Counted from the first letter of the stretch, positions 1 through 19,473 are shown. The stretch is 64,000 nucleotides of DNA from an uncultured bacterium (GCA_938028835.1 CALIMJ010000006.1:4759-68758), one strand, 5' to 3'. A program made the numbers and translations. The notes: a model not told the origin generated them from the sequence alone.

Positions 1-324
1 GTCCCCGCGGCCCGCCTCGTACCGGTCCACGGCGTCCGCGATCCCCCGGACCAGCTGGCGCCCCATCTCGTGTTCGGCCAGCATCACCCCGATGGGGCCA
101 CCCTCCCGGGGCACTCCCCGCCGTTCCAGGCACGGGAACAGGCAGCGCTCCTCCTTGCCGTGGTGGCAGCGGTCCACAAAGCCCTGGCTGAAGGCCACCG
201 CCTCCCGCACGTACCCGGGGTCCAGGGTGCCGCCGGACTGCACGGCCCGCAGGCGCGCTTCCAGCCCGTCCAGCACGCCCAGGATTACCTCGTGGTCTCG
301 GACCAGTTCCTCTGTGGACCGCAC
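1..324 (-). CDS. Hemerythrin-like HHE cation-binding domain protein, partial; the 3' part lies beyond the window start
   Basis: Minus-strand translation of 1-324 gives VRSTEELVRDHEVILGVLDGLE...HHGKEERCLFPCLE...VMLAEHEMGRQLV. The H..E/HHG..E/EH spacing is typical of the hemerythrin HHE domain. GTG start at about 324, immediately after the SDR stop. Confidence 0.5.
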   Translation of the reverse strand, partial: MRSTEELVRDHEVILGVLDGLEARLRAVQSGGTLDPGYVREAVAFSQGFVDRCHHGKEERCLFPCLERRGVPREGGPIGVMLAEHEMGRQLVRGIADAVDRYEAGRGD

Positions 325-326
325 GG

Positions 327-1082: not shown

Positions 1083-1121
1083 GCTCCCCTCCGCCTCAGG
1101 ATGGTGGGTCCCCGGTCCCGC

Positions 1122-2000: not shown

Positions 2001-2026
2001 CCGCCCACCTCCCTTCCTCGCTCCGT

Positions 2027-2830: not shown

Positions 2831-2832
2831 GG

Positions 2833-3666
2833 CTACTGCCCTCCCGCGGCCGCGGCCACTTCCGCCCGCTCGCCCAGTAGGACGTGGTCCAGGGCGAACA
2901 GGGCGGCGCCGATGGCCCCGCAGAAGTGGGACTCCTCACTCACGTTCACGGGCACCCCGCTCATCTCCCCGATCAGGTGCACCATGGCCACGTTCCGGGC
3001 CACGCCGCCCGTGAAGGTGAGCTCGGGCTCGATCCCGACCCGCCGGAGCAGCGACAGGCTGCGCGAGGCGATGGAGGCGTGCACCCCCATCAGGATGTCC
3101 TCCACCTTGCGGCCCCTCGCCAGCCAGCCCAGGATCTCCGACTCCGCGAATACCGTGCAGGTGGTGGTAATGGTCACAGGGTTGCGGGCCGTCAAAGCCA
3201 GGGGCCCCAGCTCGCCCAGGGGGATCTCCAGGGCCGCGGAGGCCGCCCCCAGGAACCGGCCGGTGCCCGCAGAGCACTTGTCGTTCATGCAGAAGTCCAG
3301 CACCTCGCCGCCGGGCCCCACCCGGATGGCCTTGGTGTCCTGGCCGCCGATGTCCAGGACCGTGCGGGTGTTGGGGAACAGGAAGCAGGCTCCTCGCGCG
3401 TGGCAGCTGATCTCCGTCACCTGGGTGTCCCCGAACTCCACCTTGAAGCGGCCGTACCCGGTGCCCACGGTGTACTGCACGTCCTCGGCGGACAGCCCCG
3501 CTTCCTGGAGCGCGGCCTCGAAGGCGGCCCGCGCCGCCTCGTTCAACCGCGCGCCCGTGTCCACCAGGGCCCGGCCCAGGATCTCCCGCTCCGGGCTCAG
3601 GATCACCGCCTTGGTCTGGGTGGACCCCACGTCCACCCCCGCCACCACCTTCTTGGCACCCCACAT
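2833..3666 (-). CDS. BadF/BadG/BcrA/BcrD-type ATPase, paralog 2
   Basis: [37 protein letters not shown] and [12 protein letters not shown] motifs. ATG at 3666 lies after a GGAGGTGA RBS. 277 aa. The N-terminal part of the 591-aa ORF was discarded. Confidence 0.85.
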
Positions 3667-3674
3667 GTTCACGC

Positions 3675-4973
3675 TCACCTCCCCACTGCAGCCTTGTGCG
3701 CCGCCAGCGCTTCGAAGAAGGCGTCCACGCGGTTCTTGATCTGCGCGTCCGACCACAGCCTCGGGTCCACCAGGTCCGACTGGATGAACAGCCCCGGCAC
3801 GTTCCGCTGCACCCGCATCCACTCCCGCACGTCCGGCAGTCCCGTGCTGGTAGTCCGGCAGCTCTTCACCCCGTGGAAGCAGATGCCGTCCACCTTCCAG
3901 TCCCGCACCACCCGGTCCAGCCACTCCTGCTGGTAGAACATGGCTCCGGTCCAGCCCCAGTAGGTGGCCCGGACCATCTGCTCCGCGAAGCTCTCCAGGG
4001 GCCGGCCCAGGTCGTAGCCGAAGCCCGGCACGAAGCCCCCGCCCGCGAACACCATGTAGGTGCTGTGCACGAACACCCCGCCCCAGGAGCTGAACAGCTC
4101 CACGAACCGGCGGAAGTGGCTGTAGCAGGCGGTCCCCACCAGCACCAGCCGGAACCGCTCGTCCGGCACCGCCGCCATCCCCAGCCGCACCCGCTCCCGC
4201 ATCTCCTCCAGGGCCAGCTCGAAGTACCGGGTGCCCTCCGGGGTCCCCCGGTACAGGTTGGCGATGCCCTGGTAGGTGACCCCCTCCAGGGGCGCGTTGA
4301 AGGGAGCGGGGATGTGCCGGTTCGTGTCGCACACCGCGTGGTACAGCTCCGCCATGCGGTTGGCCTCCCGCAGGTGCTCCCGGAACCGGTCGATGTCGAA
4401 GGACTTCCCGGTGATCCGCTCGCACACCTCGATGAGCTCCCGCAGCTGGCCCAGGACGTAGCGACAGTCGTTCTCGAAGGTCTCCCGGAAGGCCTCCGTG
4501 CCCTCCCGCAACGACTCCCGGCCCCGCCAGCCGGGCAGGTCGAAGGTGAACACCGGACAGCCGTAGTAGTGCTCCCAGAACTCTGCCCACTTGAGGTACG
4601 TGTTGCACACGTTGTTGGTGACCACCAGGGCGGGCCGGGGGACCCGTCCGTAGGGGTGCTCCCCCTCCTTCAGCTGCACCCCCACGTCCGCCTTCACGTA
4701 CCCGCAGATGTCCGGGGAGAAGCCGTAGTCCTCCGCCAGCTGGATGTACGCCTGCGACTGGCCCCGGATGGCGGTCTGCAGGGAGGTGATCTCCGGCGCG
4801 TTGATGACGAAGTCAAAGGTCAGCAGCAGCTCGGAAAGCGGCGCCATCACGAACACGTAGGCGGTGGGGTGTCCGGTCTGGGCCGCCTCCGTCATCCGCT
4901 GCCACCACAGCTCCATCAGCCGCCGGCCCTCGCGCCGGCTGACCCCCAGGATCTCCTGCGCCGATGTACTCAC
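3675..4973 (-). CDS. 2-hydroxyacyl-CoA dehydratase / benzoyl-CoA reductase BcrB(BadE)-like subunit
   Basis: HgdB/BcrB family-like sequence (..CGYVKADVG.., ..[15 protein letters not shown].., ..[11 protein letters not shown]..). Start set at the GTG (VSTSAQEIL) about 10 nt after the upstream stop. An alternative ATG (MELWW) lies at about 4916. Confidence 0.7.
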
Positions 4974-4984
4974 ACCGCACCCCC

Positions 4985-6142
4985 TCACGCGAACTGGAAC
5001 AGCAAAGACTCCGCGAAGGTCTCCACTTCCATGCCCACCTGCTCGAACACCGTCATGGTCTCCTCGAACTCCATCACCAGGTGCGGGATCCCCGCACCAT
5101 CCAGGGCCCGGCTGTAGTGCACCTGCTCCTCCAGCCCCGGTTCGCACATCTTGGCCGCGGCCACGATGGCGGCCTCCGCCCCCGCCTCCCGGATGCGCCG
5201 CAGGAGCATCTCCGCCTTGGGCTTGCGGGGGTCCCGCTGCACCGGGCTGTAGCTGCTGCGGTTGAGGTAGCTGTCCGCCAGGTTCCGCCAGGGGTCACCG
5301 TCCAGGGGGACGTCCTCCGTGATCCACCGCAGCCCGATCATGAGGTCGTCGTCCACGATGTAGCAGGCGTTCTGGATCACCGCCAGCATGTCCAAGGGCG
5401 GCTGCTCGCAGAACCCGCCCTCGAACACCACCCGGATGCGGTCCTGCTTCTTGGCGGGCCGCTGCGGCAGGAGCTCCAGCACCCGTCGCAGCAGAACGTT
5501 GTGCTCCTCGCGGGGCATCAGCCCCGCGGAGCGCACCAGCAGGTAGCTCTCCACCGCGCTGAGCAGCCACGGGCTCTCCCGCTTGATCCGGTACACCTCC
5601 CGCAGCAGCCTGCGGTTCTCGTTGAACAGGGCGATGCTGGCCCGCAGGGCGTCCTCGGTGATGGGGCGGCCGCTCAGTTCCTCGATCACGCGGCCGATCC
5701 GGCGGTACTCCCCCACCAGGTAGTCCACCGCGTGGGCGCTGCTGGCGTTGTGGGGGTGGTAGAGGGTCTCCACCCGCATCTGGGGGAAGCTGCGCACCCA
5801 CACCCCGCAGCCGTTGCGGGCGGCGTCGCAGATGTTGGGCACCACCATGAGGCTCAGGAAGTCTAGCCGCCCCGACAGCGCCAGCTCCAGGGAGCTGCGG
5901 ACGATGGAGCACACGAAGGCGGCGATGCGGGCGTCCGCCTGCCGCACCTGGACCGTTCCGCCCGCGCCCGCGATCTTCACGGGCAGCAGGCCTGCCGCGT
6001 GGGCCACCTCCTCGGGGAAGAACACCTGGAAGTGCCCCACCACTTTGCCCTGGGGATTCGCCTCCAGCCACCGCCGCACCGCGGGAAACGACGGATCCTC
6101 CACCAGGGCCCTCAGGTCGTCGAAGATCCGCTCCAGCTCCAT
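4985..6142 (-). CDS. 2-hydroxyacyl-CoA dehydratase / benzoyl-CoA reductase BcrC(BadD)-like subunit
   Basis: 385 aa, HGD-D family-like (..VVPNICDAARNGCGVW.., ..AAKMCEPGLEE..). ATG lies 8 nt after an AGAGGGG RBS. Confidence 0.7.
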   Translation of the reverse strand: MELERIFDDLRALVEDPSFPAVRRWLEANPQGKVVGHFQVFFPEEVAHAAGLLPVKIAGAGGTVQVRQADARIAAFVCSIVRSSLELALSGRLDFLSLMVVPNICDAARNGCGVWVRSFPQMRVETLYHPHNASSAHAVDYLVGEYRRIGRVIEELSGRPITEDALRASIALFNENRRLLREVYRIKRESPWLLSAVESYLLVRSAGLMPREEHNVLLRRVLELLPQRPAKKQDRIRVVFEGGFCEQPPLDMLAVIQNACYIVDDDLMIGLRWITEDVPLDGDPWRNLADSYLNRSSYSPVQRDPRKPKAEMLLRRIREAGAEAAIVAAAKMCEPGLEEQVHYSRALDGAGIPHLVMEFEETMTVFEQVGMEVETFAESLLFQFA

Positions 6143-6157
6143 GGCGAACCCCTCTTA

Positions 6158-6184
6158 TCCGACCGGTCAGTCAAACCGTACCCC
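6158..6184 (-). promoter_or_regulatory. Second copy of the GACCGGTCAGTC / CGTACCCC motif, upstream of the bcrC-like gene
   Basis: 12-mer at 6161-6172, 19 nt upstream of the ATG at 6142. CGTACCCC at 6177-6184. Confidence 0.35.
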
Positions 6185-6216
6185 GCGCACTGCGCCAGTC
6201 CAATGGTCCGGATGCC

Positions 6217-6939
6217 TCATCTTTCCTGATGCGATTGATCCACCAAAGCGTTGCGGGGGAACAGGCCCTCCTTCAGGGCCCGCGCCACCGCCTCGGCCCG
6301 GGTGTGGGCGCCCAGCTTGCGCATGAGGTTCTGCACGTGGTTGCGCACGGTAGCGGTAGACAGGAACAACGCCCGGGCGATGGCCTGGGTGTCCATCCCC
6401 TGAGCCAGCAGGCTCAGCACCTCCCGTTCCCTCCGGGTGAGGGGCTGGCTGGCGGCGGCCCCGGCGTCGAACCCCTCCCGCGCGGTGAGCAGGTCCACCA
6501 GCTCCTCGACCCGGCGCTGGTGGGAGATGTCCCGGAACAGGTGTACGACCCAGTACTCGTCCTCGTCCGGCCCGAACCGCACCACCAGGGTACTCTGGTT
6601 GACCCACACGTACCGGCCCTCCCGGCTCCGGTAGCAAACGTCCCGGGGCGGGATAGGTTCGCCCGTCCGCGCCATGACGAACTCCGGGCACCCAGGGCAG
6701 CACACCAGGTGCCCGGTGCGGTCGTGTCCGGTGACCACCCGGTAGCAGGGCCGGCCCAGCACGTCCTCCTTCCGCCAGCCCAAAAGCCGCTCCGCGGCCG
6801 TGTTCCACAGCACCACGCGCTGCCGACCGTCCACCACCATGACAGCTTCCCCGGCCCGCTCCAGCGCCTCCCGCAGGACCCGCACTGCGTCCGCGGTCAG
6901 CCGGCCTCCCGGTACGGCCTGTCCTCGCCCCACTCCCAT
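6217..6939 (-). CDS. PAS-domain sensor fused to LuxR/GerE-type HTH transcriptional regulator
   Basis: N-terminal PAS-like region (VVLWNTAAERLLGW...YVWVNQSTLVV). C-terminal LTRREREVLSLLAQGMDTQAIARALFLSTATVRNHVQNLMRKLG. The true start may be the internal Met at about 6840. Confidence 0.8.
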   Translation of the reverse strand: MGVGRGQAVPGGRLTADAVRVLREALERAGEAVMVVDGRQRVVLWNTAAERLLGWRKEDVLGRPCYRVVTGHDRTGHLVCCPGCPEFVMARTGEPIPPRDVCYRSREGRYVWVNQSTLVVRFGPDEDEYWVVHLFRDISHQRRVEELVDLLTAREGFDAGAAASQPLTRREREVLSLLAQGMDTQAIARALFLSTATVRNHVQNLMRKLGAHTRAEAVARALKEGLFPRNALVDQSHQER

Positions 6940-6955
6940 GGCCTGTCGCCTCCTC

Positions 6956-7723
6956 CTACCGGTGTTGCCAGGCGGGCTTGCGTTTTTCGAGAAACGCCCT
7001 CAGGCCCTCGTGAGCGTCCTCGGTTCGCATGAGCTCTTGCGCGTACACGTGTTCGACCTCCTGGAGCTCCTGGTAGAATACCCGCCGGAAGGACCCCAGG
7101 GCCGCGCGCTTGGCCAGGCGCAGTACCGCCGCGCTGTGGGCGCACAGCTGCTCGACGCGCCGGCGCACCGCCTGCTCGAGATCCTCCGCGGCCACCACGT
7201 CCGTGACCAGGCCCAGTTCGCGGGCCTGCCCTGCGGTCAGGACTTCCCCCGTGAGCACCGGGACCACCGCCTGCTTTCCCATCAGGGGAAGGAAAGCCGC
7301 CGCCGCCACGGGCGGGAACACTCCCACCCGAACCTCGGGCTGTCCGAAGGTCGCGCTTTCAGAGGCCACCACCACGTCGCACAGGGCAATCAGCTCGCAC
7401 CCTCCCCCCAGCGCCGCCCCGCCCACCCCGGCTACCGTGGGCACGTCCGAGTCCACGAGGGTACGGCACAAGGCGTGAAAGGCCTCCAGCATCTCGTGAA
7501 CCTTCTCCGCGGTGTGCTCCGCCACGTCCACCCCCGCGCAGAAGGATCGCCCCTCCGCGGTCAGGACCACAGCCCGCGCGGTGGGGTCCGCGAACGCCTC
7601 CCGGAGAATCCCCTCCAGCTCCCGCATCATCGCGATGGTGAGCACGTTGTGGGGCGGGCGGTTCAGGGTGACCCACCACGCCCCCTCCTCCCGCCGGACC
7701 CGTACCGCCTGATCCTGGTTCAC
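6956..7723 (-). CDS. Enoyl-CoA hydratase/isomerase (crotonase) family protein
   Basis: [15 protein letters not shown] and [25 protein letters not shown] crotonase signatures. GTG start overlaps the ACAD stop (GTGA). Confidence 0.8.
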
Positions 7724-8901
7724 CGCGCCACCTCCTGTCGGGCACTCTCCCGCACCACCTGCCGTCCCACCACCAGGGCCTGGATCTCCGAGGTCCCCTC
7801 GTAGATGCGCAGGGCCCTTACGTCCCGGTACAGGCGCTCGGCCGTGCTTCCCGCCACCACACCCCACGCCCCGTGCAGCTGGACCGCCTCGTCCACCACC
7901 CGCTGGGCGGCTTCCGTGGCGTACAGCTTGGCCATGGAGCTGTCCTGGGGCCCCCGGCCCGCGTCGCAGTCGTGGGCCCACGCGGCCCGGTACACCAGGA
8001 GCTCGCTGGCCTCCACCTCCGTGGCCATCCACGCCAGCTTCCACCGCGCCAGCTGGAAGTCCGACAGCGCCTGTCCGAAGGCCACCCGCTGCCGGCTGTG
8101 CCGCACCGCCTCGTCCAGGGCCCTGCGGGCAAAGCCCACCGCCGCGGCACCCACCGTGGCGCGGAAGGTGTCCAGGGTGCGCATGGCCACCGCATACCCC
8201 TCGCCCTCCTCCCCCAGGCGGTGCGTCGCCGGGACCCGGCAGCCGTCCAGGGTCAGGGTGCCGAGCGGGTGCGGGCTCAGGGTGCGGATGCGGCTGGACA
8301 CCCGCAACCCCTGCGCGTGGGCGTCCACCACGAAGGCCGTGAGGTCTTCCTTGCCAGGGCCGGTGCGCGCGAACACCACGTACTGGTGCGCCAGCCCGGC
8401 GTTGGAGATCCACGTCTTGGTGCCCACGAGCTCGTACCCATCCTGTACCCGGCGAGCCGCCGTCTGGATGGCGGCCACATCCGAACCCGCCTGCGGCTCC
8501 GACAGGGCAAAGGCCGCGATGCGCTCGCCCCGGGCCACCGCGGGCAGGTAGCGGGCCCGGAGCTCCTCACTCCCAAACAGGGCGATGGGCAAGCTGCCGA
8601 GCCCCTGCATGGCGAACGCGAAGTCCGCAAGCCCGCTGTGGTACGCCAGGATCTCCCGGGCCAGGCACAGGCTGCGCACGTCCACCCGGGCGTGCACGCC
8701 TCCGTACGCGGCGGGCACACAGTACCGCAGCCAGCCAGCCTCTCCGAGTCTGCGCACCAGCTCCCGTGCCACCCCGTCGGGGTCGAGCTCCTCCCGCTCC
8801 GCCAGGCCCCCGAGCTCCCGGGCGGCCCACGCGCGCAGGTCCTCCGCCAGCGCCCGGTGGTGGGCGTCGAAGAAGGGCCAGCGCAGGGGGTACAGGTCCA
8901 C
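7720..8901 (-). CDS. Acyl-CoA dehydrogenase
   Basis: 393 aa with ..[10 protein letters not shown].., ..QLHGAWGVV.. and ..IYEGTSEIQ.. ACAD motifs. Confidence 0.9.
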
Positions 8902-8903
8902 TC

Positions 8904-9743
8904 CTAGTCCCCCCGGAACTCAGGCGGGCGGCGCTGGACGAAGGCTTCGTAACCGCGGGCGAAATCCTGTGTCAGCATGCACAGCGCCTGCGCCTGGGCC
9001 TCCGACTCCACCGCCTCGTCCAGGGACATGTCCCACTCCTTGTGGAGCATCCGCTTGGTGATGGCGTGGGCGAAGGTGGGCCCCCTGGCCAGCTGGCGGG
9101 CCAGCTCCTGGGCCTCCTGCAGCAGCGTCTCCGGAGGGCACAGGCGGTTGAAGAACCCCCACCGCTCCGCCTCCTCGCCCGACATCTCGCGGCCCGTGTA
9201 CAGCAGCTCCGCGGCCCGGCCCAGCCCGACGATCCGGGGCAGCAGGGCGCAGGCGCCCATGTCGGAGCCCGCAAGCCCCACCCGGTTGAACAGGAAGGCC
9301 AAGCGGCTGCGGGCGGTGCCCAGCCGGAGGTCGCACGCCGCGGCCACCACCGCACCCGCACCCACGCACACCCCGTCCACCGCCGCCACCAGGGGCTGTG
9401 GGCAGTGCCGCATGGCCACCACCAGCTCCCCCGTCATCCGTGTGAAGGCCAGCTTGCGCCGGACATCCATGTCCAGGAGGGGCCGGATGATCTCGTGCAC
9501 GTCCCCGCCGGAGCAGAAGTTGCCGCCAGCACCGGTGATCACCACCACCTTCACGTCCTCCACCCGCCGCAGCAACTCGAAGGTGTCCCGCAGCTCCGCG
9601 TAGCTCTCGAAGGTGAAGGGGTTCTTGCGCTCCGGACGGTTGAAGGTGAGGGTGGCCACCCCGTCCTGGAGGTACCACAGGAAGTGTCGAAGCCGGATGT
9701 CCGACCCGCGCATGATCCCTCCCTGCGCCACGGCCTCAACCAC
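8904..9743 (-). CDS. Enoyl-CoA hydratase/isomerase family protein
   Basis: [17 protein letters not shown] and [27 protein letters not shown] motifs. 279 aa. Confidence 0.85.
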
Positions 9744-11286
9744 CCCCCGCCCGCCCCCGCTCCCGCTCCGCCAGCACCCGCCGCAGGATCTTGCCGACCG
9801 CGGACTTGGGCAACTCGTCCACGAACTCCACCTCGCGCACCCGCTTGTAGGGGGCCACCCGCTCCCCCACGAACCGCAGCAGCTCCTCCAGGCTCACCGG
9901 CGCCCTGCGGACCACGAACGCCTTGGGTACCTCCCCCAGTTCGGGGTCGGGCCGGGGGACCACGCAGGCTTCACGCACCGCGGGGTGTTGACGCAGGACC
10001 TCCTCCAGCTCCGCGGGCGCGATGGAGTAGCCCTTGTACTTGATCATTTCCTTGCGGCGGTCCACCCACCACAGGTAGCCGTCCCCGTCGAACCGCACCA
10101 GGTCTCCCGTGCGGAACCAGCCGTCCGCGAACGCCTCCTGGTTGGCCTGCGGGTTGTTCCAGTAGCCCACGGTGACCATCGGCCCCCGCACCAGCAGCTC
10201 CCCCACTTCTCCCGCCTCCAGGTCCCGACCGGTCTCCGGATCCACCACCCGCTGGTCCAGTCCCGGCACCGGAGGTCCCACCGAACCCCGTTTGATCTTC
10301 ATGGGCGGGACCGCGATGTTCATCGGTCCCGCCGTCTCCGTCATGCCGATGTGCTCGGTGGCGGGGCAGCCGAAAACTTCCTCCGCCCGGCGGGCCAGCT
10401 CCGCGTCCAGGGGCAGGGCCGCGGTGTTCAGGAACCGCAGCCCGCGGTAGGCAAACCCCGTCCGCTCCGCGGCCTCCACCAGCTCCCACAGGGCTGGAGG
10501 CACGGCGAACAGCTCCCGAACCCGGTGCGTCTCCATCAGCCGCAACACCTCCACGGCGTCAAACCGTGGGACCAGCACCTGGCAGGCGCCCAGGCACACC
10601 CCGGCATTCAGCAGGGCCAGCAGGCCCGCGCAGTGGCACAGGGGCAGGAAGTGTACGTAGCGGGAGCGTTCCGTGATGAAGCCCACCGCCCGCCCGGCCA
10701 TCAGGTCCGCCACCACGTTGCGGTGGGTGAGGGCCGCGCCCTTGGGAAGGCCCGTGGTGCCGCTGGAGTACAGGATGCAGGCCAGGTCGTGCTGTGGGTC
10801 CAGGACCACGGGTTCGGGCTGCTGCCAGGGCTCTGCGGCTTCCTCCAGCTCGTCCAGGCTCAGCACGTAGCGCAGGGAAGAAGCCACGCCGGCCTCCCGC
10901 AGCTGGCCGACCCACTCCTTCGAGGCCAGGACCATCTGGGCTCCGGTGTCCAGCAGGCACCGCTGCACCTCCGGGAGCTTGCTGAGGGGGCTCAGAGGTA
11001 CCACAACCCCGCCCGCCCGGAGGACCCCGTAAAAGCCCAGGGGGACCTGCGGGCACGTGGGCGACAGGAACACCACGCGGTCGCCCTTCTCCAGCCCCAG
11101 CTCCTGCAGGGCCCGGGCCACCCTTCCGCTGGTGTCCCACAGCTGCCCGTAGGTGGTCACCCGCTCGGTAGGCCCCCACACCAGGACAGGCCGGTTCGGC
11201 TCCGACCGTGCCCACCGCTCCAGCAGCTGGCAGGAGGTCAGCTTGGGGACCGCCAGAGGATGCGCCGTGGGGTGACGGAACACCAA
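9736..11286 (-). CDS. AMP-dependent acyl/aryl-CoA synthetase (candidate 4-hydroxybenzoate/benzoate-CoA ligase)
   Basis: [15 protein letters not shown]-binding motif, GMTE, and the [15 protein letters not shown] hinge. 516 aa. Confidence 0.85.
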
Positions 11287-11345
11287 CTTCCCTAGACCTC
11301 CTGCCCCACCGCCACCGTACCCGCTGCGGCCCTCAAGGACACCCC

Positions 11346-12347
11346 CTAGGAGGCCAGCGCTTCCAGAGCGCGGCGTACGTGGACGGGTGCCGTGCGCCTG
11401 CGATACAGGACCGTGAAGTCGGTGTTGTCCATGGGGTGCACGGCCCGGTGCACGGCCTGGCTCACCTGCTCCAAGACCTCTCCCTCCAGCCGCCGTCCGA
11501 CCACCAGGGACGCGGCTTCCTCCAGCACGAGGGGCCGGGAGGCAACCCCTCCCAGCACCAGCCGGCAGGACGCCACGGTCCCGTCCGGGTCCTGCCGCAC
11601 GGCTGCCGCCACACCCAGGGCCGCGAAGTCCAACGAACCCCGCCGCCGCACCTTGCGGTAGGTGCTGCGCAGCCCGTCCGCGGGCGGGAGCAGGACCTCC
11701 ACCACCAGCTCATCAGGCGACTTGTCCAGGTAGCGGATGCCGTCGTCCCGGTACAGGTCCTCCAGGGGCAGGACGCGCTCCCCTCGAGCGCCCACCAGCC
11801 GCACCTTCGCGCCCAGCGCGATCAGCGCCGGGGCCCCGTCGCCCGCGCTCACCGCCCAGCACCGCCCGCCGCCCGGCGCCACGCGGCACGGTACTTCCTG
11901 CGGGCTGTGGGGCCCGGGTGCCTTCATGCACCAGCCCACGGCCTCGCGCCAGTGCTCCGTCTGGTCGTAGTAGTTGCAGCGCGTGTCCAGGCACAGGTTC
12001 CCGCCCAACGTGCCCATGCGGTGCAAAATGGGGTTGGAGCACACCGCGACCGCTTGCGCCAGCGCACGGTAGGCGGAGCGCACCGCGGGCTGCGCGGCCA
12101 CCTCCGCCAGGGTGCACCCGGCGCGCAGCACCAGGCCCTGTTCCGGACTCCCGGACCAGCCCCGCAGCTCCCGCAGCCCGCGCAGGCTCACCAGGTACCG
12201 GGGCTGCAGCTGGCGGCGTTTCATCTTCGGGAGCAGGTCGGTGCCGCCCGCCAGCGGCGCCGCCTCCGGGCCCAGCTCCGCCAGCATGCGCGTGGCCTCC
12301 GCCACCGTGGCGGGCCGGAGCAACTGAAAAGCGGGCAGGCGCAGCAT
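11346..12347 (-). CDS. Molybdopterin dehydrogenase FAD-binding subunit (CoxM/HcrB-like) with Cys-rich insertion
   Basis: AGGTDLL FAD motif. Inserted loop CLDTRCNYYDQTEHWREAVGWCMKAPGPHSPQEVPCRVAPGGGRC, with Cys spacing 16/14/9. Confidence 0.8.
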   Translation of the reverse strand: MLRLPAFQLLRPATVAEATRMLAELGPEAAPLAGGTDLLPKMKRRQLQPRYLVSLRGLRELRGWSGSPEQGLVLRAGCTLAEVAAQPAVRSAYRALAQAVAVCSNPILHRMGTLGGNLCLDTRCNYYDQTEHWREAVGWCMKAPGPHSPQEVPCRVAPGGGRCWAVSAGDGAPALIALGAKVRLVGARGERVLPLEDLYRDDGIRYLDKSPDELVVEVLLPPADGLRSTYRKVRRRGSLDFAALGVAAAVRQDPDGTVASCRLVLGGVASRPLVLEEAASLVVGRRLEGEVLEQVSQAVHRAVHPMDNTDFTVLYRRRTAPVHVRRALEALAS

Positions 12348-12357
12348 CGGGCTCCCC

Positions 12358-14766
12358 CTATGCGGGCTGCGCCGCCTCCTCCCAGCTCTGGGGGCGGGGG
12401 ACCCGCTCCGGGGGCGGGAAGGAGAACGGCGGCACCTTGGTCGGGCCCACGCGGCCCGTCCGGCCCTTGCGCTGTTCCTCCAAAGCCTTGAGCACCCTCT
12501 CGGGCGTGGCGGGAACTTCGTCCACCCGCACCTTCAGGGCGTCCGCGATGGCGTTGAGGATGGCGGGCACCACGCACAGCAAAGGACCCTGGCCCACCTC
12601 CTTAGCGCTGAAGGGGGCCCGGGGTTCCTCCGTCTCGACCAGGAAGGTGATCACCTCCGGCATCTCGTACACGGTGGGCACCTTGTAGTCCAGCCAGGAC
12701 GGACCCCGGTGCAGCTCCTTGCGGAAGGCCTGCTCCTCCATCAGGGCCTCGCCCAGGGCCATGTGCACGCTGCCCTCCACCTGGCCCTCCACCAGCACCG
12801 GGTTGAGGGCCCGGCCGATGTCGTGGGCCACCCATACCCGCTCCACCTTCACCTCTCCGGTCTCGGGGTCCGCCTGCACCTCCGCCACGCACGCGGAGAA
12901 GGTGTAGGCGGGCGAGGGCCCCACCCCGGAGCCTTTGTACGTCCCCAGCTTCTGCGGGGGCCGGTAGCTGCCGGAGGTGGCCAGGCACCCGAACCTGGCC
13001 TCGGCCCACTGTGCCGCCTGGGCGAAAGAGCCACCGACTTGCGGGTTCGCCTCATCGAAGATTCGCCGGGACCGCGCCACCAGCCGGCTCCGGGGCACCT
13101 GCAGGCGTTCGGCCACCGCCTCGAACAGCAGGTCCCGCACCCGACAGGCGGCCTCATACGCCGCGTTGCCCACCATGAGCGTCACCCGGCTGCTGTAGCT
13201 GCCGAGGTCGATGGGAGTGAGGTCCGTGTCGGAGGTCACCAGGCTTACGTCCTGGGGCTGCAGTCCCAAAACCTCCGCCACGATGGTGGCCACCGCGGTG
13301 GCCGAGCCCTGCCCGATCTCCGTGGCCATGGTGTACACGGTCACCCCGCCCGAGCGGTCCACCCGCAGGTGAACCTCGGAGTGGGGCATGTCGCTGTAGT
13401 AGATGGAGCCGCCCGCGCCCGTGAGGTAGGCGCTGCACGCAAACCCCAGCCCCCGCCCGTAGGGCAGCCGGCCCCGACGCTCGTGCCACCCGCTGGCCTC
13501 CACCACCTTCTCGATGCACGCCCGCAGCCCGTTGCTGGTGATCTCCAGCCAGTTCACCGTGAGCTCGTTGGGCCCCGTGAGGTTGCGCAGCCGCAGCTCC
13601 ACGGGGTCCAGGCCCAGCTCCTCGCTCAGCTTGTCCAGGTGCACTTCCAGGGCGCAGCGGGCCTGCGGGGTGCCGTGGCCGCGCTTGGGGCCGCACGGCG
13701 GCTTGTTGGTGAACACCCGGACGGCCTGGAACCGGTAGTGGGGAATCCGGTAGGTGACCGGCTGCTGCGTGCCGGCGTAGAGCATGGTGGCGGGGCCGAA
13801 GGAGCAGTACGCCCCACCGTCCAGATAGGCCTCCACGTGCATGGCGGTGATGCGGCCGTCCCGCTTCACCCCCGTCCGGATCCGCAGCAGCTCCGGGTGC
13901 CGGCCCCGGTGCGCGTAGAACACCTCCTCCCTCGTGAGGGTGATCTTCACCGGCCGGCCCGTGAGCATGCTGAGCTTGGCAGCACACACCTCGTGGTGGA
14001 AGATGTCCAGCTTGCCGCCGAACCCCCCGCCTACTGCGGGTACCACCACCCGCACCTGGTGCTCCTCCAGGCCCAGGGCCTTCGCCAGTCCCCGGTGCAG
14101 GTAGTGGGGGCCCTGGTGGGACGTCCACAGGGTGAGCTTCCGCGCCCCGGGGTCCCACCAGGCCAGGGCGCTGTGCGGCTCCAGGGGCGCGTGGGTGCTG
14201 CCCTCGTAGAAGAACAGGTCCTCCCGCACGTGGTCGGCTTCCGCGAAACCCACCTCCACGTCGCCGAACTCCAACGAGGCCAGCCGGTGGACGTTGCCAA
14301 ACGGCCCGTACTCGTGGATGCGGGGCTCCGGGTTCCGCAGGGCCTCCTCCAGGTCCATGCGGGCCGGCAGCGGTTCGTACTCCACCTCCACCAGCCGGGC
14401 GGCCTCCTCCGCGGTGTACGGATCCACCGCCGCCAGGGCGGCCACCGGCTCGCCCACGTAGCGCACCTTGTCCACCGCCAGCGCGGTCTCGTCCTGCCCC
14501 ACGGGGAACACGCTGTAGCGGACCGGGACGTCCCGGCCCGTGATGGCCGCCACCACCCCGGGAAGCTGCAGGGCCCGCTCCAGCCTGACCGACACCAGCT
14601 TGGCGTGCGCGTGCGTGCTGCGCACCAGCTTGCCGAACAGCATGCCCGGAAGGCTGAGGTCGTCGGTGTACTGGGCGCGGCCGGAGACCTTGGCCCAGCC
14701 GTCCACCCGCGGCAGGCGCTGGCCCACCACGTTCCACACGCGTTCCCGCTCCTTCAGGACCCGCAT
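12358..14766 (-). CDS. Xanthine-oxidase-family molybdopterin-binding large subunit (HcrA/CoxL-like)
   Basis: 802 aa starting MRVLKERERVWNVVGQ. Ald_Xan_dh family-like throughout. The N-terminal 122 codons of the 924-aa ORF are rejected. Confidence 0.85.
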   Translation of the reverse strand: MRVLKERERVWNVVGQRLPRVDGWAKVSGRAQYTDDLSLPGMLFGKLVRSTHAHAKLVSVRLERALQLPGVVAAITGRDVPVRYSVFPVGQDETALAVDKVRYVGEPVAALAAVDPYTAEEAARLVEVEYEPLPARMDLEEALRNPEPRIHEYGPFGNVHRLASLEFGDVEVGFAEADHVREDLFFYEGSTHAPLEPHSALAWWDPGARKLTLWTSHQGPHYLHRGLAKALGLEEHQVRVVVPAVGGGFGGKLDIFHHEVCAAKLSMLTGRPVKITLTREEVFYAHRGRHPELLRIRTGVKRDGRITAMHVEAYLDGGAYCSFGPATMLYAGTQQPVTYRIPHYRFQAVRVFTNKPPCGPKRGHGTPQARCALEVHLDKLSEELGLDPVELRLRNLTGPNELTVNWLEITSNGLRACIEKVVEASGWHERRGRLPYGRGLGFACSAYLTGAGGSIYYSDMPHSEVHLRVDRSGGVTVYTMATEIGQGSATAVATIVAEVLGLQPQDVSLVTSDTDLTPIDLGSYSSRVTLMVGNAAYEAACRVRDLLFEAVAERLQVPRSRLVARSRRIFDEANPQVGGSFAQAAQWAEARFGCLATSGSYRPPQKLGTYKGSGVGPSPAYTFSACVAEVQADPETGEVKVERVWVAHDIGRALNPVLVEGQVEGSVHMALGEALMEEQAFRKELHRGPSWLDYKVPTVYEMPEVITFLVETEEPRAPFSAKEVGQGPLLCVVPAILNAIADALKVRVDEVPATPERVLKALEEQRKGRTGRVGPTKVPPFSFPPPERVPRPQSWEEAAQPA

Positions 14767-15251
14767 CCCGATGGCCTCCCCGTCTCGCGAAGCCGCCGCG
14801 CCGCGGCCTGCACCGCCTCCAGGATCTTCACGTAGCCGGTGCAACGGCAGAACACCCCCGCCACCGCCTCCCGCACCTGCTCGCCCGACGGCTCGGGGAC
14901 ACGGTCCAGCAGCGCCTTGGTGACCAGCACCATGGCGGGGGTACAGTAGCCACACTGCAGGGCGCCACTGTCCACGAAGGCCTGTTGCACCGGGTGCAGC
15001 TGACCGTCCGTAGCAAGCCCCTCCACGGTGGTGACCTCGTGGCCTTCGAGCTCTTGGGCCAGGAGCAGGCAGGACAGCGCAGGCTCCCCGTCCACCAGTA
15101 CCGTGCAGATCCCGCACTCCCCCAGCTCGCACCCGTGTTTGGTCCCCACTAGCCCCAGGTCCTCCCGCAGCACCTCCAGGAGCGTGCGGTGGGGCGGCAC
15201 CAGCACCCGGTGCTCCTGCCCGTTCACCCTGAGCCGGACCACACGCTCCAT
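14754..15251 (-). CDS. (2Fe-2S)-binding small subunit (HcrC/CoxS-like)
   Basis: CELGECGICTV ferredoxin-type motif plus CGYCTPAMV...CRCTGY second cluster motif. 165 aa. Overlaps the large-subunit start by 13 nt. Confidence 0.9.
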   Translation of the reverse strand: MERVVRLRVNGQEHRVLVPPHRTLLEVLREDLGLVGTKHGCELGECGICTVLVDGEPALSCLLLAQELEGHEVTTVEGLATDGQLHPVQQAFVDSGALQCGYCTPAMVLVTKALLDRVPEPSGEQVREAVAGVFCRCTGYVKILEAVQAAARRLRETGRPSGCGS

Positions 15252-15266
15252 CCCACCCTCCCTTGA

Positions 15267-15298
15267 ACTGACCGGTCAGTCTAGTCCCTTCGTACCCC
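15267..15298 (-). promoter_or_regulatory. Palindromic operator-like motif ACTGACCGGTCAGT plus CGTACCCC upstream of the hcrC-like gene
   Basis: GACCGGTCAGTC starts 19 nt upstream of the hcrC ATG. The identical 12-mer plus CGTACCCC recurs at the same distance upstream of the bcrC-like gene. Confidence 0.35.
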
Positions 15299-15337
15299 TT
15301 GCCTAGTCCGCCAGCAATCCGGCGCAGGCCGGATGAC

Positions 15338-16741
15338 CTAGGTCCTACGTCCGACGGAGGGCAGGAAGTCCTCCAGGCGCACCCGGTCCCAGCCCATGGG
15401 CTTCAACCGCTGAAACGGCTTTCGCGCGTCCTCCCCCGCGCACAGGGGCGGCTTGGTGGCGTCGATGAGGAGCTTGCCGCCCACCCGGTTCCAGTACGGG
15501 CCGCCGGGTGGTATCAGCTCCCGCGCGGACGGGTCCATGGGGTGCACCCGCACGCCGGGGATCACCACTACGTCTGTCTCGGGGTTGCAGCGGGTATTGA
15601 CGGCCCACAGGACCTCCCAGGGCTGGTAGGGGTCCACGTCCTCGTCCACCGCGATGGCGACCTTGGGGTGTAGCACGGGACTGCTGACCACGCCCAGGAG
15701 CACCTGCTTGGCCTCACCCCAGAAGCGCGGCGTCATCTGGACCACCACCCCGAAGATTCCGGGCAGCACCACCACGTTGTGCAGCTCCACGTGGCCCGCA
15801 ATGCTCCGGATGTGGTTGTAGATGGCCGCCGCCAGCGGCACCTTGTGGAACACACAGCCCTCGACCTCCGACCCGTTCTGCACCGCCTTGTAGATGGCGT
15901 CCTGCCGCAGGGTGATGCAGTCCACCTCCACCACGGGGTTATGCCCCATCCCCGCCACGTAGTAGTCGTGGAACTCGGAAAACGGTCCTTCCGGCTCCCG
16001 CACGTGGGGCAGGACCTTCCCCTCCAGCACGATCTCCGCGTCCGCGGGGACTTCCAGGTCGTTGGTCTCGCACCGGACCACCTGGACCGGCTCGCCCAGC
16101 AAGCCGCCCGCCAGCTCCAGCTCGTCCATCTCGAAGGGCCCGCTGGTGGCAGCGGCCATGTAGTGCAGCGGGTGGTGGCCGATGTAGATGGCCACGGGCA
16201 TCGCCTCGCCCGCGGCCTCGTACGCGTCGTAGATGCGTCGGGTGTGCCGTGGGACCATGAGGATCCCCAGCTTGCGGGGGCCCTTCACCTGCAGGCGGTG
16301 GAAAGCGACGTTGCGCTTGCCCGTGGCCGGATCGCGGCAGACTACCAGACCCGAGGCGATGTAGGGCGGTTCCTCGCTCCCGTTGACGTGCACGGGCAGC
16401 CGGGTCACGTCCGCCTCCGTGCCCTTCCACACCACCTCCTTCACCGGGCCGGAGGCCACCCGCTGCGTAGGGACCCGCCGCTGGGACCGCTCGGCCGCGG
16501 TGGGGGTCAGGCGCTGCAGGGTAGTGCCGTACGCCAGCGCCGCGTGACGCAGGTTCGCGGGCGCCATGCCCAGGCTGCGCCATCCCGGGTAGCCCACCAG
16601 GTTCTCGAACAGCAGGGCTTTCTCCCGGGATTGGTACAGCAGAGCTCCCATCTCCGTGCGGGGATCCACCGGGCTGCGCACCCGCACCAGTTCCCCGACG
16701 TCTTCCAGCTGGGCGATCCACGTGCGCATGTCCGCCGGCAT
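15338..16741 (-). CDS. UbiD-family (de)carboxylase (4-hydroxybenzoate decarboxylase / phenylphosphate carboxylase-like)
   Basis: 467 aa, UbiD-like throughout, with the C-terminal LLIDATKP motif. Confidence 0.9.
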   Translation of the reverse strand: MPADMRTWIAQLEDVGELVRVRSPVDPRTEMGALLYQSREKALLFENLVGYPGWRSLGMAPANLRHAALAYGTTLQRLTPTAAERSQRRVPTQRVASGPVKEVVWKGTEADVTRLPVHVNGSEEPPYIASGLVVCRDPATGKRNVAFHRLQVKGPRKLGILMVPRHTRRIYDAYEAAGEAMPVAIYIGHHPLHYMAAATSGPFEMDELELAGGLLGEPVQVVRCETNDLEVPADAEIVLEGKVLPHVREPEGPFSEFHDYYVAGMGHNPVVEVDCITLRQDAIYKAVQNGSEVEGCVFHKVPLAAAIYNHIRSIAGHVELHNVVVLPGIFGVVVQMTPRFWGEAKQVLLGVVSSPVLHPKVAIAVDEDVDPYQPWEVLWAVNTRCNPETDVVVIPGVRVHPMDPSARELIPPGGPYWNRVGGKLLIDATKPPLCAGEDARKPFQRLKPMGWDRVRLEDFLPSVGRRT

Positions 16742-16748
16742 GGCCGCC

Positions 16749-16886
16749 CTACCGCAGGACCTCCGCCCACTTGGCCAGCACCCGCTCCCGCACCTCGGGG
16801 CTGGAGGCGGCCACGGGCGGGAACCGGTCCTTCCACTCGAAGGGACGGGTGGCGTCGATCACCGCGCGGGAGTTGAACCGTTCTGC
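16749..16886 (-). pseudogene. C-terminal fragment of a second UbiD-family gene, truncated at the insertion-sequence boundary
   Basis: Translation VAERFNSRAVIDATRPFEWKDRFPPVAASSPEVRERVLAKWAEVLR* matches UbiD C-termini (IDAT motif). There is no start codon. The frame is closed by TGA exactly where TnpB-derived sequence begins. Confidence 0.5.
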
Positions 16887-16899
16887 AACTCATGGTCAT

Positions 16900-17427
16900 C
16901 TATTTCCACAGTGGGATAGATAACCGGTTGCTTCCTGCCTCATCGACCCATAGCTCGTAGACCAGCTGCACCGTTCCGCCGCCAGAGGGATCTCCGCAGG
17001 CGTCACTTCCCGGGGAACTCCCGGTAGGGCTGCTTAGGACAGCCAGGCCATATTCTCGCAGGTTCAGCGCGGCGTTCAGGTCCCGGTCTAGTTCTAGACC
17101 GCACGCCGCACACCGGAAAACCCGGCGGGAAGGGTGTAGCCTGGGCCCCACCATCCCGCACCGCCAGCACCGCCTGGTGGACGGGAAGCCCCCAGATGCC
17201 ACGATGAGCTGCGATCCGTACCAGTGGGCCTAGTACTCCAGCATCCGCCGGAAGCTAGCCCAGCTCACATCGGCTGCACGTCGGGACAGCCTCCCCCCGG
17301 CCAGCCCCCGCACGTTCAGGTCTTCCACCACGATGACTGGCTTGGTTCTCACCAGCCATGTAGTGACCTTGTGCAGGAAGTCCCGGCGGATGCAGCGAAC
17401 CCGGCGGTGCAGCCGTGCCAGCCGCAA
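16900..17427 (-). mobile_element. tnpB: Degenerate IS605/IS1341-type TnpB (OrfB) remnant: frameshifted C-terminal half only
   Basis: Fragment 17230-17427 encodes RRDFLHKVTTWLVRTKPVIVVEDLNVRG...FRRMLEY (RuvC-II region). Fragment 16900-17202 encodes RRVFRCAACGLELDRDLNAALNL (zinc finger plus RuvC-III). The two frames differ. The N-terminal approximately 200 aa are absent. AT-richer end sequences flank the remnant. Confidence 0.7.
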
Positions 17428-17488: not shown

Positions 17489-18589
17489 TCAGTAATAAAC
17501 GATCACAAAGACGGGGCCAGCTGTCACCCCCCGCGCCTCCAACTGCGGGTCCTCCCGGATGTCCCGCGGGTCGGCCACCGGGTAGCCCAGGATCCCCCGG
17601 CGCAGGGCCTCGTGGGTGAACTCCGCCTTGGTCCGCTCCGCCAGGAACGCCGCGATGGCCTCCTCCAGCCGATCGATCTCCTCCTGGGTCGCGGTGACCA
17701 CGTCGAAGGCCTCCCAGTCGCGGCCCCGCAACGCCTCCGGCAACGCCCCACACTCCTCCATCCAGCGCACCAGGGCCGCGTTGGAGTGGCGGCCCGCCTC
17801 CCCGGAGTACAGGATGAAGTTGATGTACCCGTCCCGGCACCGGTACACGGCCCGCACCCGCGCGCCGTGCACGTTGCGGCCCACCATGGCGTTGCCGGCC
17901 CGGCGCAGGTCCCTCCCGAACAGGCTGTAGTACGCGGGCGCGTTGGCCAGGGCGCTCAGCAGGCTGGCCTGAACGGACACGTCCACCAGCTGGCCGCGTC
18001 CGGTCCGCTGGCGGTACAGGTGCGCTACCAGGGCACCCGCGGCCGCGTACAGGCTTCCCCACAGGGGCGCCTGCGGCAACGACACCCGCAACGGCGAGCC
18101 GTCAGGCCTTCCGACCAGCTGCATGAGCCCGCTGGCCGCCATCACCACGAGGTCCGGACCTCGCCACCCGCTGCGGGGACCCGTGCGCCCGAAGGGCGTG
18201 AGGGACACCCACACCACCCGCGGGTTGCTCTCCCGCAGCTGCGGGTAGCCGACACCCAGCTCCTCCAGGAAGCCCGGCGGGTAGGACTCCACCACGAAGT
18301 CCGCGCGCGCCACGAGGCGCGCGAAAAGCTCCCGCCCCCGGGGATCCTCCAACGCCAGGGTGATGCCCCGCTTGTTGGCGTTGTACGCAAGCCACGGGAG
18401 GCTGCGCTCCGGGTGGGGTTCGTCACGGTAAAAAGGACCCCGCCACCGGCCCGGGTCCCCGCCCGGGGGCTCCACCTTCACCACGTCCGCGCCCAGGTCT
18501 CCCAGCAGCCGGCCGCAGAACCAGCCGGCCTCGTCCGTGAGGTCCAGCACCCGGTAGCTGGCCAGCAGGCTGGAGGCTTCCCTCACCAC
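17489..18589 (-). CDS. Family III CoA-transferase (CaiB/BaiF/Frc-like), possibly 3'-altered
   Basis: N-terminal YRVLDLTDEAGWFCGRLLGDLGADVVKVEPPGG is the family III signature. Approximately 366 aa from the GTG, which is short for this family. The last codons (VFVIVYY*) are AT-rich and adjoin the IS remnant. Confidence 0.7.
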   Translation of the reverse strand: MVREASSLLASYRVLDLTDEAGWFCGRLLGDLGADVVKVEPPGGDPGRWRGPFYRDEPHPERSLPWLAYNANKRGITLALEDPRGRELFARLVARADFVVESYPPGFLEELGVGYPQLRESNPRVVWVSLTPFGRTGPRSGWRGPDLVVMAASGLMQLVGRPDGSPLRVSLPQAPLWGSLYAAAGALVAHLYRQRTGRGQLVDVSVQASLLSALANAPAYYSLFGRDLRRAGNAMVGRNVHGARVRAVYRCRDGYINFILYSGEAGRHSNAALVRWMEECGALPEALRGRDWEAFDVVTATQEEIDRLEEAIAAFLAERTKAEFTHEALRRGILGYPVADPRDIREDPQLEARGVTAGPVFVIVYY

Positions 18590-19338: not shown

Positions 19339-19473
19339 GGCAAAGGTAATATCGTTCAGATCTCCACCGCCCACCATCGGTCGCGCAGCCGACTTCCTCG
19401 GGTGCGGGCCCGATGTCGTTGACACCCCAGGGCACAGCGCCCATCATGGGGCCGACTGCTGCAGGAGGGTGGG

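Follow-up and report, generated by a model that had tools for sequence, protein, structure and literature searches.

What recognizes the short palindrome that is repeated in front of two aryl-coenzyme A (aryl-CoA) reductase-type operons of an uncultured bacterium? The window analyzed here is the whole stretch of 64,000 nucleotides (nt), GCA_938028835.1 CALIMJ010000006.1:4759-68758, in which the 12-mer GACCGGTCAGTC stands upstream of a bcrC-like gene and again upstream of an hcrC-like gene. A first-pass annotation, made from the sequence alone, proposed that the two copies form a common operator for a PAS-LuxR or a GntR regulator encoded in the same stretch. The operator part of this proposal holds, as the 12-mer lies within a conserved palindrome that falls into a known class of TetR sites; the named regulators are probably wrong, as the motif does not track either of them. 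Both operators are likely bound by a TetR-family repressor, the product of the last gene of the bcr operon, which would prevent initiation at the two internal promoters and also limit its own synthesis.

A palindrome shared by two upstream regions

The copies of the 12-mer are located at 6161-6172 and 15270-15281 on the plus strand, as annotated before, and each starts 19 nt from the ATG of its gene, leaving a gap of 18 nt. The copy at hcr is part of a perfect 14-bp palindrome, ACTGACCGGTCAGT (15267-15280), and both copies are placed immediately 5′ of Shine-Dalgarno-like runs (AAGAGGGG and GGGAGGGTGGG). The intergenic gaps that hold the two sites are short and separate co-directional genes; they follow the PAS-LuxR gene (74 nt) and a UbiD-family gene (86 nt), and the two upstream regions read GGGGTACGGTTTGACTGACCGGTCGGATAAGAGGGGTTCGCCATG and GGGGTACGAAGGGACTAGACTGACCGGTCAGTTCAAGGGAGGGTGGGATG on the gene strand. 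The 12-mer makes up the core of a palindrome of 20 bp with the consensus TTGACTGACCGGTCAGTCAA, which is built of two overlapping TGAC-N6-GTCA inverted repeats that are offset by 4 bp. The two predicted operators are the following:

6155..6174, minus strand, predicted bcr operator, reading TTGACTGACCGGTCGGATAA on the gene strand and containing the 12-mer at 6161-6172.
15264..15283, minus strand, predicted hcr operator, reading TAGACTGACCGGTCAGTTCA on the gene strand and containing the 12-mer at 15270-15281.

The sites were scored with a 28-column matrix that was built solely from sites upstream of bcrC and hcrC homologues in other genomes, with the window excluded. The bcr operator reaches 30.5 bits and the hcr operator 29.5 bits, the third-best position of the window scores -2.8, and the best score in 200 random windows of equal dinucleotide content is 18 bits. 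Within the window, the words in question occur about as often as expected by chance, which would by itself agree with a GC-rich palindromic word that recurs by accident in two intergenic regions: GACCGGTCAGTC with at most two mismatches is found 9 times against 12.6 expected, CGTACCCC 4 times against 3.6, and GACCGGTC 4 times against 2.7. The first-pass annotation had rightly called the recurrence alone insignificant, and such counts cannot settle the matter. The matrix scores do, together with the retention of the site at the same gene boundaries across phyla; the recurrence of the 12-mer is real, and chance is effectively refuted as its cause.

The comparison set consists of 80 fetched loci encoding BcrC relatives (1.24 Mb), of which 26 are motif-positive and 54 motif-negative. 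The matrix finds 41 matches of at least 10 bits across these loci, and nearly all of them are placed just upstream of a bcrC, hcrC, or TetR gene. The palindrome occurs 10-150 nt upstream of bcrC homologues in genomes of Sysuimicrobiota, Armatimonadota, Acidimicrobiia, Gaiellales-type bacteria, and Dormibacterota, with about 25 loci belonging to phyla other than that of the window, and it is also found before hcrC and before tetR itself. Upstream of bcrC in three Sysuimicrobiota relatives the core reads TTGACTGACCGGTCGGA(T/C)AA. It takes the forms CTGACTGACCGGTCAGTCAG and TTGACTGACCGTTTAGTCAG in Acidimicrobiia-type contigs, TTGACTGACYRGTCAGTCTA in about 15 Dormibacterota contigs, and TTGACTATCCGGACAGTCAA in one Armatimonadota contig, and the Gaiellales-type contigs carry paired TTGACCGNNCGGTCAA boxes.

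The genomes closest to the window are Candidatus Tepidifontimicrobium thermophilum (locus L001; BcrC 98% identical, DNA 93%) and Candidatus Sysuimicrobium calidum (L003), both of the phylum Sysuimicrobiota/CSP1-3. The bcr operator has a perfect left half and three mismatches to the 20-bp consensus in its right half, and this site is conserved in L001-L003. The hcr operator is likewise conserved upstream of hcrC in these three loci, with the inverted repeat of L003 shifted by 4 bp to the second register. Within the window, the pattern TGACYRNNYRGTCA with at most one mismatch is found solely at 6160-6173 and 15269-15282, with one mismatch each; every site has one register with one mismatch and a second, weaker register with two. 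The cross-phylum consensus TGACTGAC..GTCAGTCA holds both registers, and the sites before tetR genes and those of Gaiellales type have a single one. The identical distance to the start codon, which had been offered as evidence, is not conserved, with a spacing that varies between 17 and 19 nt in the three closest relatives; the equal distance of the window's two sites is a coincidence, in a layout that is constrained by promoter, operator, and ribosome-binding site.

Linkage of the motif to a TetR-family gene

For the gene profile, every open reading frame (ORF) of three reference loci with high G+C at third codon positions was checked for its presence across the 80 loci. TetR is the sole ORF family whose pattern tracks the motif: a TetR-family gene is present in 23 of the 26 motif-positive loci and in none of the 54 motif-negative ones (Fisher p = 3.8e-17). 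The three motif-positive exceptions are L004 and L011, which have little flank on one side, and L007, which has a weak TetR-like match at the contig end. In Dormibacterota, the gene immediately upstream of the site encodes a protein with the Pfam domains TetR_N and TetR_C_6, and the site is also present at this tetR gene itself. The bcr-linked orthologs share 45-54% identity across phyla and have the same domain pair, i.e., a TetR helix-turn-helix (HTH) followed by a helical C-terminal domain.

In L001, L002, and L003, tetR is the last gene of the bcr operon. The hemerythrin ORF of L001 ends at 16362 and is followed after 27 nt by tetR (16389-16991); as position 16143 of this locus aligns to window position 1 (93% identity), tetR would be located about 250-850 bp to the left of the window. 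The edge of the window interrupts the preceding gene:

1..326, minus strand, 5′ part of the hemerythrin gene.

The order hemerythrin-then-tetR is the same in L002, L003, and L081, with the two genes directly adjoining in L001 and L081, and a hemerythrin gene belongs to the same operon in L001-L003, L081, and L206. The left flank of the window's contig was sought through an exact protein match, for which nothing is on record.

Six further TetR homologs, which were fetched by protein identity, all have operator-like sites before their operon. Three of these loci are bcr clusters (L081, L082, and L206), L083 is an IclR-hcrCAB-tetR cluster with the single-register site TTGGCCGATCGGTCAAA, and L204 and L205 are clusters of aldehyde dehydrogenase, enoyl-CoA hydratase, and tetR. 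A benzoate-CoA-ligase-family gene adjoins the cluster in L205 (562 bits, above the cut-off). The contig of L205 carries two TetR paralogs (5864-6484 and 12882-13622), and two tandem operator-like sites precede a tannase-family gene (L205:13725-13770), which hints at a regulon that reaches upstream steps of aromatic ester breakdown.

The AlphaFold model of the TetR protein has nine helices and a predicted local distance difference test score of 92, and its top Foldseek hits in the PDB are all generic TetR folds. Among solved structures, the relatives over the full length are MbdR (4uds, E = 5e-9, third-best), Bacillus FadR (about 1e-8), and KstR2; the SbtR structure 3vuq matches in the HTH region (E = 2e-6). 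The best NCBIfam hits of the protein (BetI, RutR, and FadR) are all far below their cut-offs, and it has no characterized equivalent; many homologs are annotated by the Joint Genome Institute as FadR (YsiA) type. A subgroup of the homologs (P0013-P0030; L048:1525-2481), several of them annotated as Armatimonadota, carries an extra N-terminal HTH_17 domain of excisionase type and is about 270-320 amino acids long, compared to about 200-220 in the other homologs.

A metagenome scan for YTGACTGACCGGTCAGTC returned 120 contigs, only about seven of which encode bcrC or a bcr-type TetR. A TetR-like ORF is located within 400 nt of the exact 18-mer in 84 of the 120 contigs, with the motif on the 5′ side of the ORF in 78 of these 84; when contigs with at least 800 nt on each side of the motif are considered, the fraction is 46/62. 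These TetR neighbors are diverse, have no curated name, and are only about 25-30% identical to the bcr-linked family. The palindrome is therefore an operator type used generally within the TetR family, the bcr-linked proteins being one group of users. The 18-mer TGACTGACCGGTCAGTCA is widespread (L084-L203), is usually flanked by AT-rich sequence that resembles a -10 element, and stands directly 5′ of TetR genes; it seems to represent a large operator class that is barely described outside Thermus.

This breadth gives rise to the main rival of the operon-end repressor, in which a different TetR protein encoded elsewhere, for example a global SbtR/PfmR-like regulator of acyl-CoA metabolism, binds the two sites. 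The same 18-mer adjoins the many diverse TetR genes of the metagenome scan, and two TetR proteins of Thermus have sites in common (PMC7022988). Such a regulator would not account for the near-perfect co-occurrence of the motif with the bcr-linked TetR ortholog across phyla, nor for the site that this tetR gene itself carries in Dormibacterota, and we consider it unlikely.

The regulators of the first-pass annotation are encoded by the following genes:

6217..6939, minus strand, PAS-LuxR gene directly upstream of the bcr operator (Pfam PAS and GerE).
18583-19425, GntR gene.

The position of the PAS-LuxR gene next to the bcr site, both in the window and in L001-L003, speaks for its product as the binding protein. 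The motif tracks TetR and neither of these two regulators, however. A PAS-LuxR homolog is found in 3 of the 26 motif-positive loci (L001-L003) and in 1 of the 54 motif-negative ones (L005), the latter having the homolog yet no motif. A GntR homolog is found in none of the 80 loci, with L001-L003 being uninformative since their fetched sequence stops short of the GntR position. In more than 20 motif-positive loci, neither protein has a homolog within 10 kb, the motif fits an experimentally defined class of TetR sites, and a separate repeat upstream of the -35 region is a better candidate for a LuxR/NarL-type protein. It is thus very unlikely that the palindrome is the operator of PAS-LuxR or GntR, and the operon-end TetR protein is preferred.

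The separate repeat is a 7-2-7 inverted repeat, TGATGCA-N2-TGCATCA, which is located upstream of the putative bcr -35 element, with ATGATGC as a third half-site about 6 nt after it. Two Acidimicrobiia-type loci have the repeat in perfect form; the copy in the window (GCATCAggaaagATGAGGCATCC) is degenerate and overlaps with the stop codon of the PAS-LuxR gene. The element is placed at 6210-6240 (minus strand) in the window, at L010:9887-9902, L011:3044-3059, and L082:~1404-1419, and at 9182, 9750, and 9840 in L005. A 7-2-7 geometry is typical of NarL/LuxR-type HTH dimers. PAS-LuxR, or an unlinked activator, may have its real target here; a locally encoded regulator was sought among the neighboring genes, and no conserved one was found.

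Promoter layout and proposed mechanism

The arrangement of the site is clearest in Dormibacterota, where the operator fills the 17-nt spacer of a good sigma-70-type promoter, TTGACT-TGACTGACYRGTCAGTC-TAAGAT. The ATG follows 6 nt after the -10 element in L018, L019, and L024; the mRNA would therefore be leaderless and the site untranscribed in those loci. Leaderless-looking bcrC genes of this phylum (L018:3161-3240, L019, L024:9917-9990, L027, and L049) share the arrangement TTGACT-N17-TAAGAT, 6 nt, and ATG or GTG. Sister Dormibacterota contigs have a leader of about 50 nt with AAGGAGC, and the operator fills the promoter spacer in both types.

This position bears on the suggestion that the palindrome acts as RNA, i.e., as a hairpin of the 5′ untranslated region that precedes the ribosome-binding site and controls translation or mRNA stability. 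Both copies of the window, 18 nt before the ATG, would indeed be transcribed if the promoters proposed below are right. The predicted hairpins are weak, however, with folding energies of -6.3 and -5.1 kcal/mol, and do not exceed shuffled sequence in stability (z = +0.5 and +1.4); the bcr copy is only half a palindrome, and the Dormibacterota site between the -35 and -10 elements of leaderless-gene promoters lies upstream of the transcript. A role as RNA is highly improbable on these grounds: the site works as DNA.

The promoter hexamers proposed for the window were chosen by conservation alone:

6175..6180, minus strand, putative -10 element of the bcr promoter, TACGGT, directly abutting the operator and part of CGTACCCC.
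6198..6203, minus strand, putative -35 element of the bcr promoter, TTGGAC, 17 nt upstream of the -10 element.
15289..15294, minus strand, weak candidate -10 element of the hcr promoter, TACGAA, without the usual final T and with a conserved TA.
15278-15283, alternative candidate -10 element of the hcr promoter, TAGACT, inside the operator.
15312..15317, minus strand, candidate -35 element of the hcr promoter, TTGCTG, inside GCCGGATTGC.

At bcr, the -10 column reads TACGGT in L001, TAGGGT in L002, and TAAGGT in L003, while the spacer varies. The CATTG(G/T) block at the -35 position is kept in L001 and L003 and displaced by 1 nt in L002. In the Acidimicrobiia-type loci L082, L010, and L011, the sequences TATGAT, GAGAAT, and CACAAT take the place of the -10 element, 0-1 nt before the operator. 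In this layout, the bcr operator would cover about -6 to +14. A different arrangement, in which the TTGACT within the bcr site serves as the -35 element of a leaderless start like that of Dormibacterota, was rejected, as the window has no -10 element at the right distance and TAAGAG is not conserved (CAAGAG in L002).

The first-pass annotation had counted CGTACCCC, which is located at 6177-6184 and 15291-15298 and thus 4 and 9 nt farther upstream than the 12-mers, as a second shared operator word. The word is where it was said to be, and its sharing is mostly chance, as only its TA(N)G part is kept in relatives. At bcr it appears to be largely the -10 region, with a GGGG part that is not conserved.

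The word GCCGGATTGC at hcr is invariant in the window and in L001-L003, and its would-be hairpin partner is not conserved. The hairpin-like element to which it belongs, ATCCGGC-CTGC-GCCGGAT (15317-15334, minus strand), follows the UbiD stop codon directly and lacks a T-run. Because only its right arm is invariant, it is more likely the hcr -35 region than a terminator; a terminator scan of both upstream regions found nothing. A feature of another kind is present in L081, an Armatimonadota locus from the same hot-spring data set, where GGCAGGT-like repeats abound in an unusual tract of about 140 nt (L081:2415-2555) between the operator and bcrC.

Textbooks describe TetR repressors that act through palindromic operators over catabolic promoters, and a mechanism of this kind is proposed here. 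The repressor would be the TetR_N/TetR_C_6 protein whose gene, the last one of the bcr operon, is expected just beyond the left edge of the window; the location of tetR at the operon end would make the bcr operon self-regulating. Each operator would be located just after a putative sigma-70-type -10 element and before the ribosome-binding site, covering the transcription start region of the bcrCBAD-type and the hcrCAB-type operon. Bound as one dimer or as two, the repressor would prevent open-complex formation or promoter escape. An aryl-CoA thioester, either benzoyl-CoA or 4-hydroxybenzoyl-CoA, would be made when the substrate is present and would release the repressor, so that both reductases are turned on together. 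The inducer is probably an aryl-CoA because the regulated enzymes act on 4-hydroxybenzoyl-CoA and benzoyl-CoA, because TetR homologs are located in bcr, hcr, and benzoate-CoA-ligase clusters, and because the closest characterized relatives (MbdR with 3-methylbenzoyl-CoA, FadR, and KstR2) sense CoA thioesters.

Several points weigh against this repressor model. No TetR-like ORF is found in the 64-kb window at E <= 1, which is why the first-pass annotation did not propose a TetR protein; that the window genome has the gene is most likely, judging from synteny with relatives of 80-93% identity. The bcr site is only half palindromic, the -10 candidate of hcr is poor, and a consensus promoter scan of both upstream regions found no sigma-70 consensus. 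Many unrelated TetR proteins use TGAC-N6-GTCA, so a different TetR from elsewhere could bind. The choice of an aryl-CoA as the inducer is drawn purely from context, and no ligand clue emerged from the AlphaFold model and the Foldseek search of the PDB. Finally, binding and the control of expression by the bcr-linked TetR family are predicted from sequence comparison.

Related systems and neighboring genes

The closest match to the operator was reached by a literature search with the 10-mer core of the motif, which led to two papers on Thermus; a search for the exact 18-mer found no paper. SbtR (TTHA0167, PDB 3VUQ) and PfmR (TTHB023) are TetR-family repressors of Thermus thermophilus HB8 (PMC4948773, PMC7022988). 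SbtR selects TGACTGGCCAGTCA from random DNA, with the general form TGACYrnnyRGTCA, and its best genomic site, TGACTGACCGGTCA, is located between TTHA1315 and TTHA1316, where PfmR binds CTGACTGACCGGTCAT with nanomolar affinity (PMC4948773, PMC7022988). The sites of both proteins overlap the -35, -10, or +1 position and transcription is repressed (PMC4948773, PMC7022988), and the two TetR proteins share the same sites (PMC7022988). These sites belong to the same TGAC-N6-GTCA class as those of the window (TGACYRNNYRGTCA), and the natural Thermus sites TGACTGACCGGTCA and CTGACTGACCGGTCAT contain the 12-mer exactly. The differences are that SbtR and PfmR are not orthologs of the bcr-linked TetR, to which they are similar mainly within the DNA-binding domain, that the Thermus regulons comprise fatty-acid and phenylacetate-type metabolism and an efflux gene instead of benzoyl-CoA reductase, and that the full site found here is a 20-bp double-register palindrome.

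MbdR of Azoarcus sp. CIB resembles the proposed repressor in its function. It is a TetR repressor of the 3-methylbenzoyl-CoA reductase cluster that is autoregulated and is induced by the first CoA thioester of the pathway (PMC4424350). Both proteins belong to the TetR family, MbdR is likewise dedicated to an ATP-dependent aryl-CoA reductase cluster, and it has several operators within one cluster, over the -10/+1 region. Its operator, ATAC-N10-GTAT (PMC4424350), is unrelated to TGAC-N6-GTCA, the sites of the window do not have this form, and the sequence identity is low.

A precedent for the double register is found in FadR (YsiA) of Bacillus subtilis and B. halodurans. The B. halodurans protein binds the 20-bp ATGAATGAATACTCATTCAT as two dimers on inverted repeats that are 4 bp apart (PMC5397183). 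The skeleton TGAnTGA-N4-TCAnTCA is the same as here and the ligand of FadR is an acyl-CoA; in contrast, the FadR operator is AT-rich with other specificity bases, and its regulon is fatty-acid beta-oxidation. By analogy, two dimers may bind at the window sites. A FadR-like double-register skeleton would explain why some sites are single repeats of 14-16 bp and others double repeats of 20 bp.

The benzoyl-CoA pathway genes of other bacteria are controlled by the substrate-dependent regulators BzdR, BoxR, BadR, BadM, and BgeR, of which BzdR and BoxR respond to benzoyl-CoA. These belong to other protein families (BzdR/BoxR type, MarR, and Rrf2) with other operators, and none of the five was found adjoining the motif.

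The class of site and the logic of its use are already known, the former from SbtR and PfmR and the latter also from MbdR for an aryl-CoA reductase cluster. New are the regulator family, its link to Thauera-type bcr/hcr clusters in several uncultured phyla, and the way in which the two operons are paired in the window genome; a literature search found no paper that describes the regulator family together with bcr/hcr clusters. In its widest form, the interpretation is more tentative, with slightly more doubt than confidence attached to it: an undescribed TetR repressor, for which the name "BcrR" is used here, may respond to benzoyl-CoA or another aryl-CoA and travel with the 20-bp operator and with ATP-dependent benzoyl-CoA-reductase-type clusters through five or more phyla, mostly uncultured ones (listed as Sysuimicrobiota, Armatimonadota, Dormibacterota, and Acidimicrobiia and Gaiellales-type Actinomycetota). 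It would coordinate the hcr-like and bcr-like operons in the window genome and may act together with a second factor at the 7-2-7 repeat.

The general gain is modest, as the switch, real as it is, is a fairly ordinary one whose site class has already been characterized in Thermus. It nevertheless offers a testable model of how anaerobic aromatic-acid degradation is switched in phyla without cultured or tractable members, Sysuimicrobiota and Dormibacterota among them, and the model names a candidate protein and two DNA targets. One operator type would link the two aryl-CoA reductases of the pathway. A misassignment is also corrected, in that the adjoining PAS-LuxR protein is not the best candidate and the favored one is encoded outside of the window. 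Should benzoyl-CoA prove to be the inducer, the pair of TetR protein and operator could be used as a compact, possibly thermostable biosensor of this metabolite.

The two operons are headed by the following genes:

4985..6142, minus strand, bcrC-like gene, first of the bcr operon (Pfam HGD-D).
14754..15251, minus strand, hcrC-like gene for a [2Fe-2S] small subunit of the xanthine-dehydrogenase family (Pfam Fer2_2/Fer2).

The best NCBIfam family of the bcrC-like product is benzoyl-CoA reductase subunit C, with 314 bits against a cut-off of 421. The bcr operon continues with bcrB, two BcrA/D-type ATPase genes, an amidohydrolase gene, a gene for a BadH-like short-chain dehydrogenase/reductase, and the hemerythrin gene, with tetR in the last place in relatives. 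The hcrC-like gene heads an hcrCAB-like operon (11346-15251), whose large subunit and flavin adenine dinucleotide-binding subunit have their best matches in 4-hydroxybenzoyl-CoA reductase alpha and beta (830 and 299 bits; neither reaches the cut-off). The enzymes are named only as "like" because all of these NCBIfam matches are below the equivalog cut-offs. Both operons are part of a minus-strand array of about 17 kb (window positions 1-16741), which comprises, in this order, genes for the UbiD-family decarboxylase, the hcrCAB-like enzyme, an acyl-CoA ligase, an acyl-CoA dehydrogenase, a dienoyl-CoA-hydratase-like protein, and PAS-LuxR, as well as the bcr operon. Aromatic degradation is unmentioned in the main text of the paper that describes the Sysuimicrobiota; the gene content of the array points to anaerobic degradation of benzoate or 4-hydroxybenzoate in Sysuimicrobiaceae.

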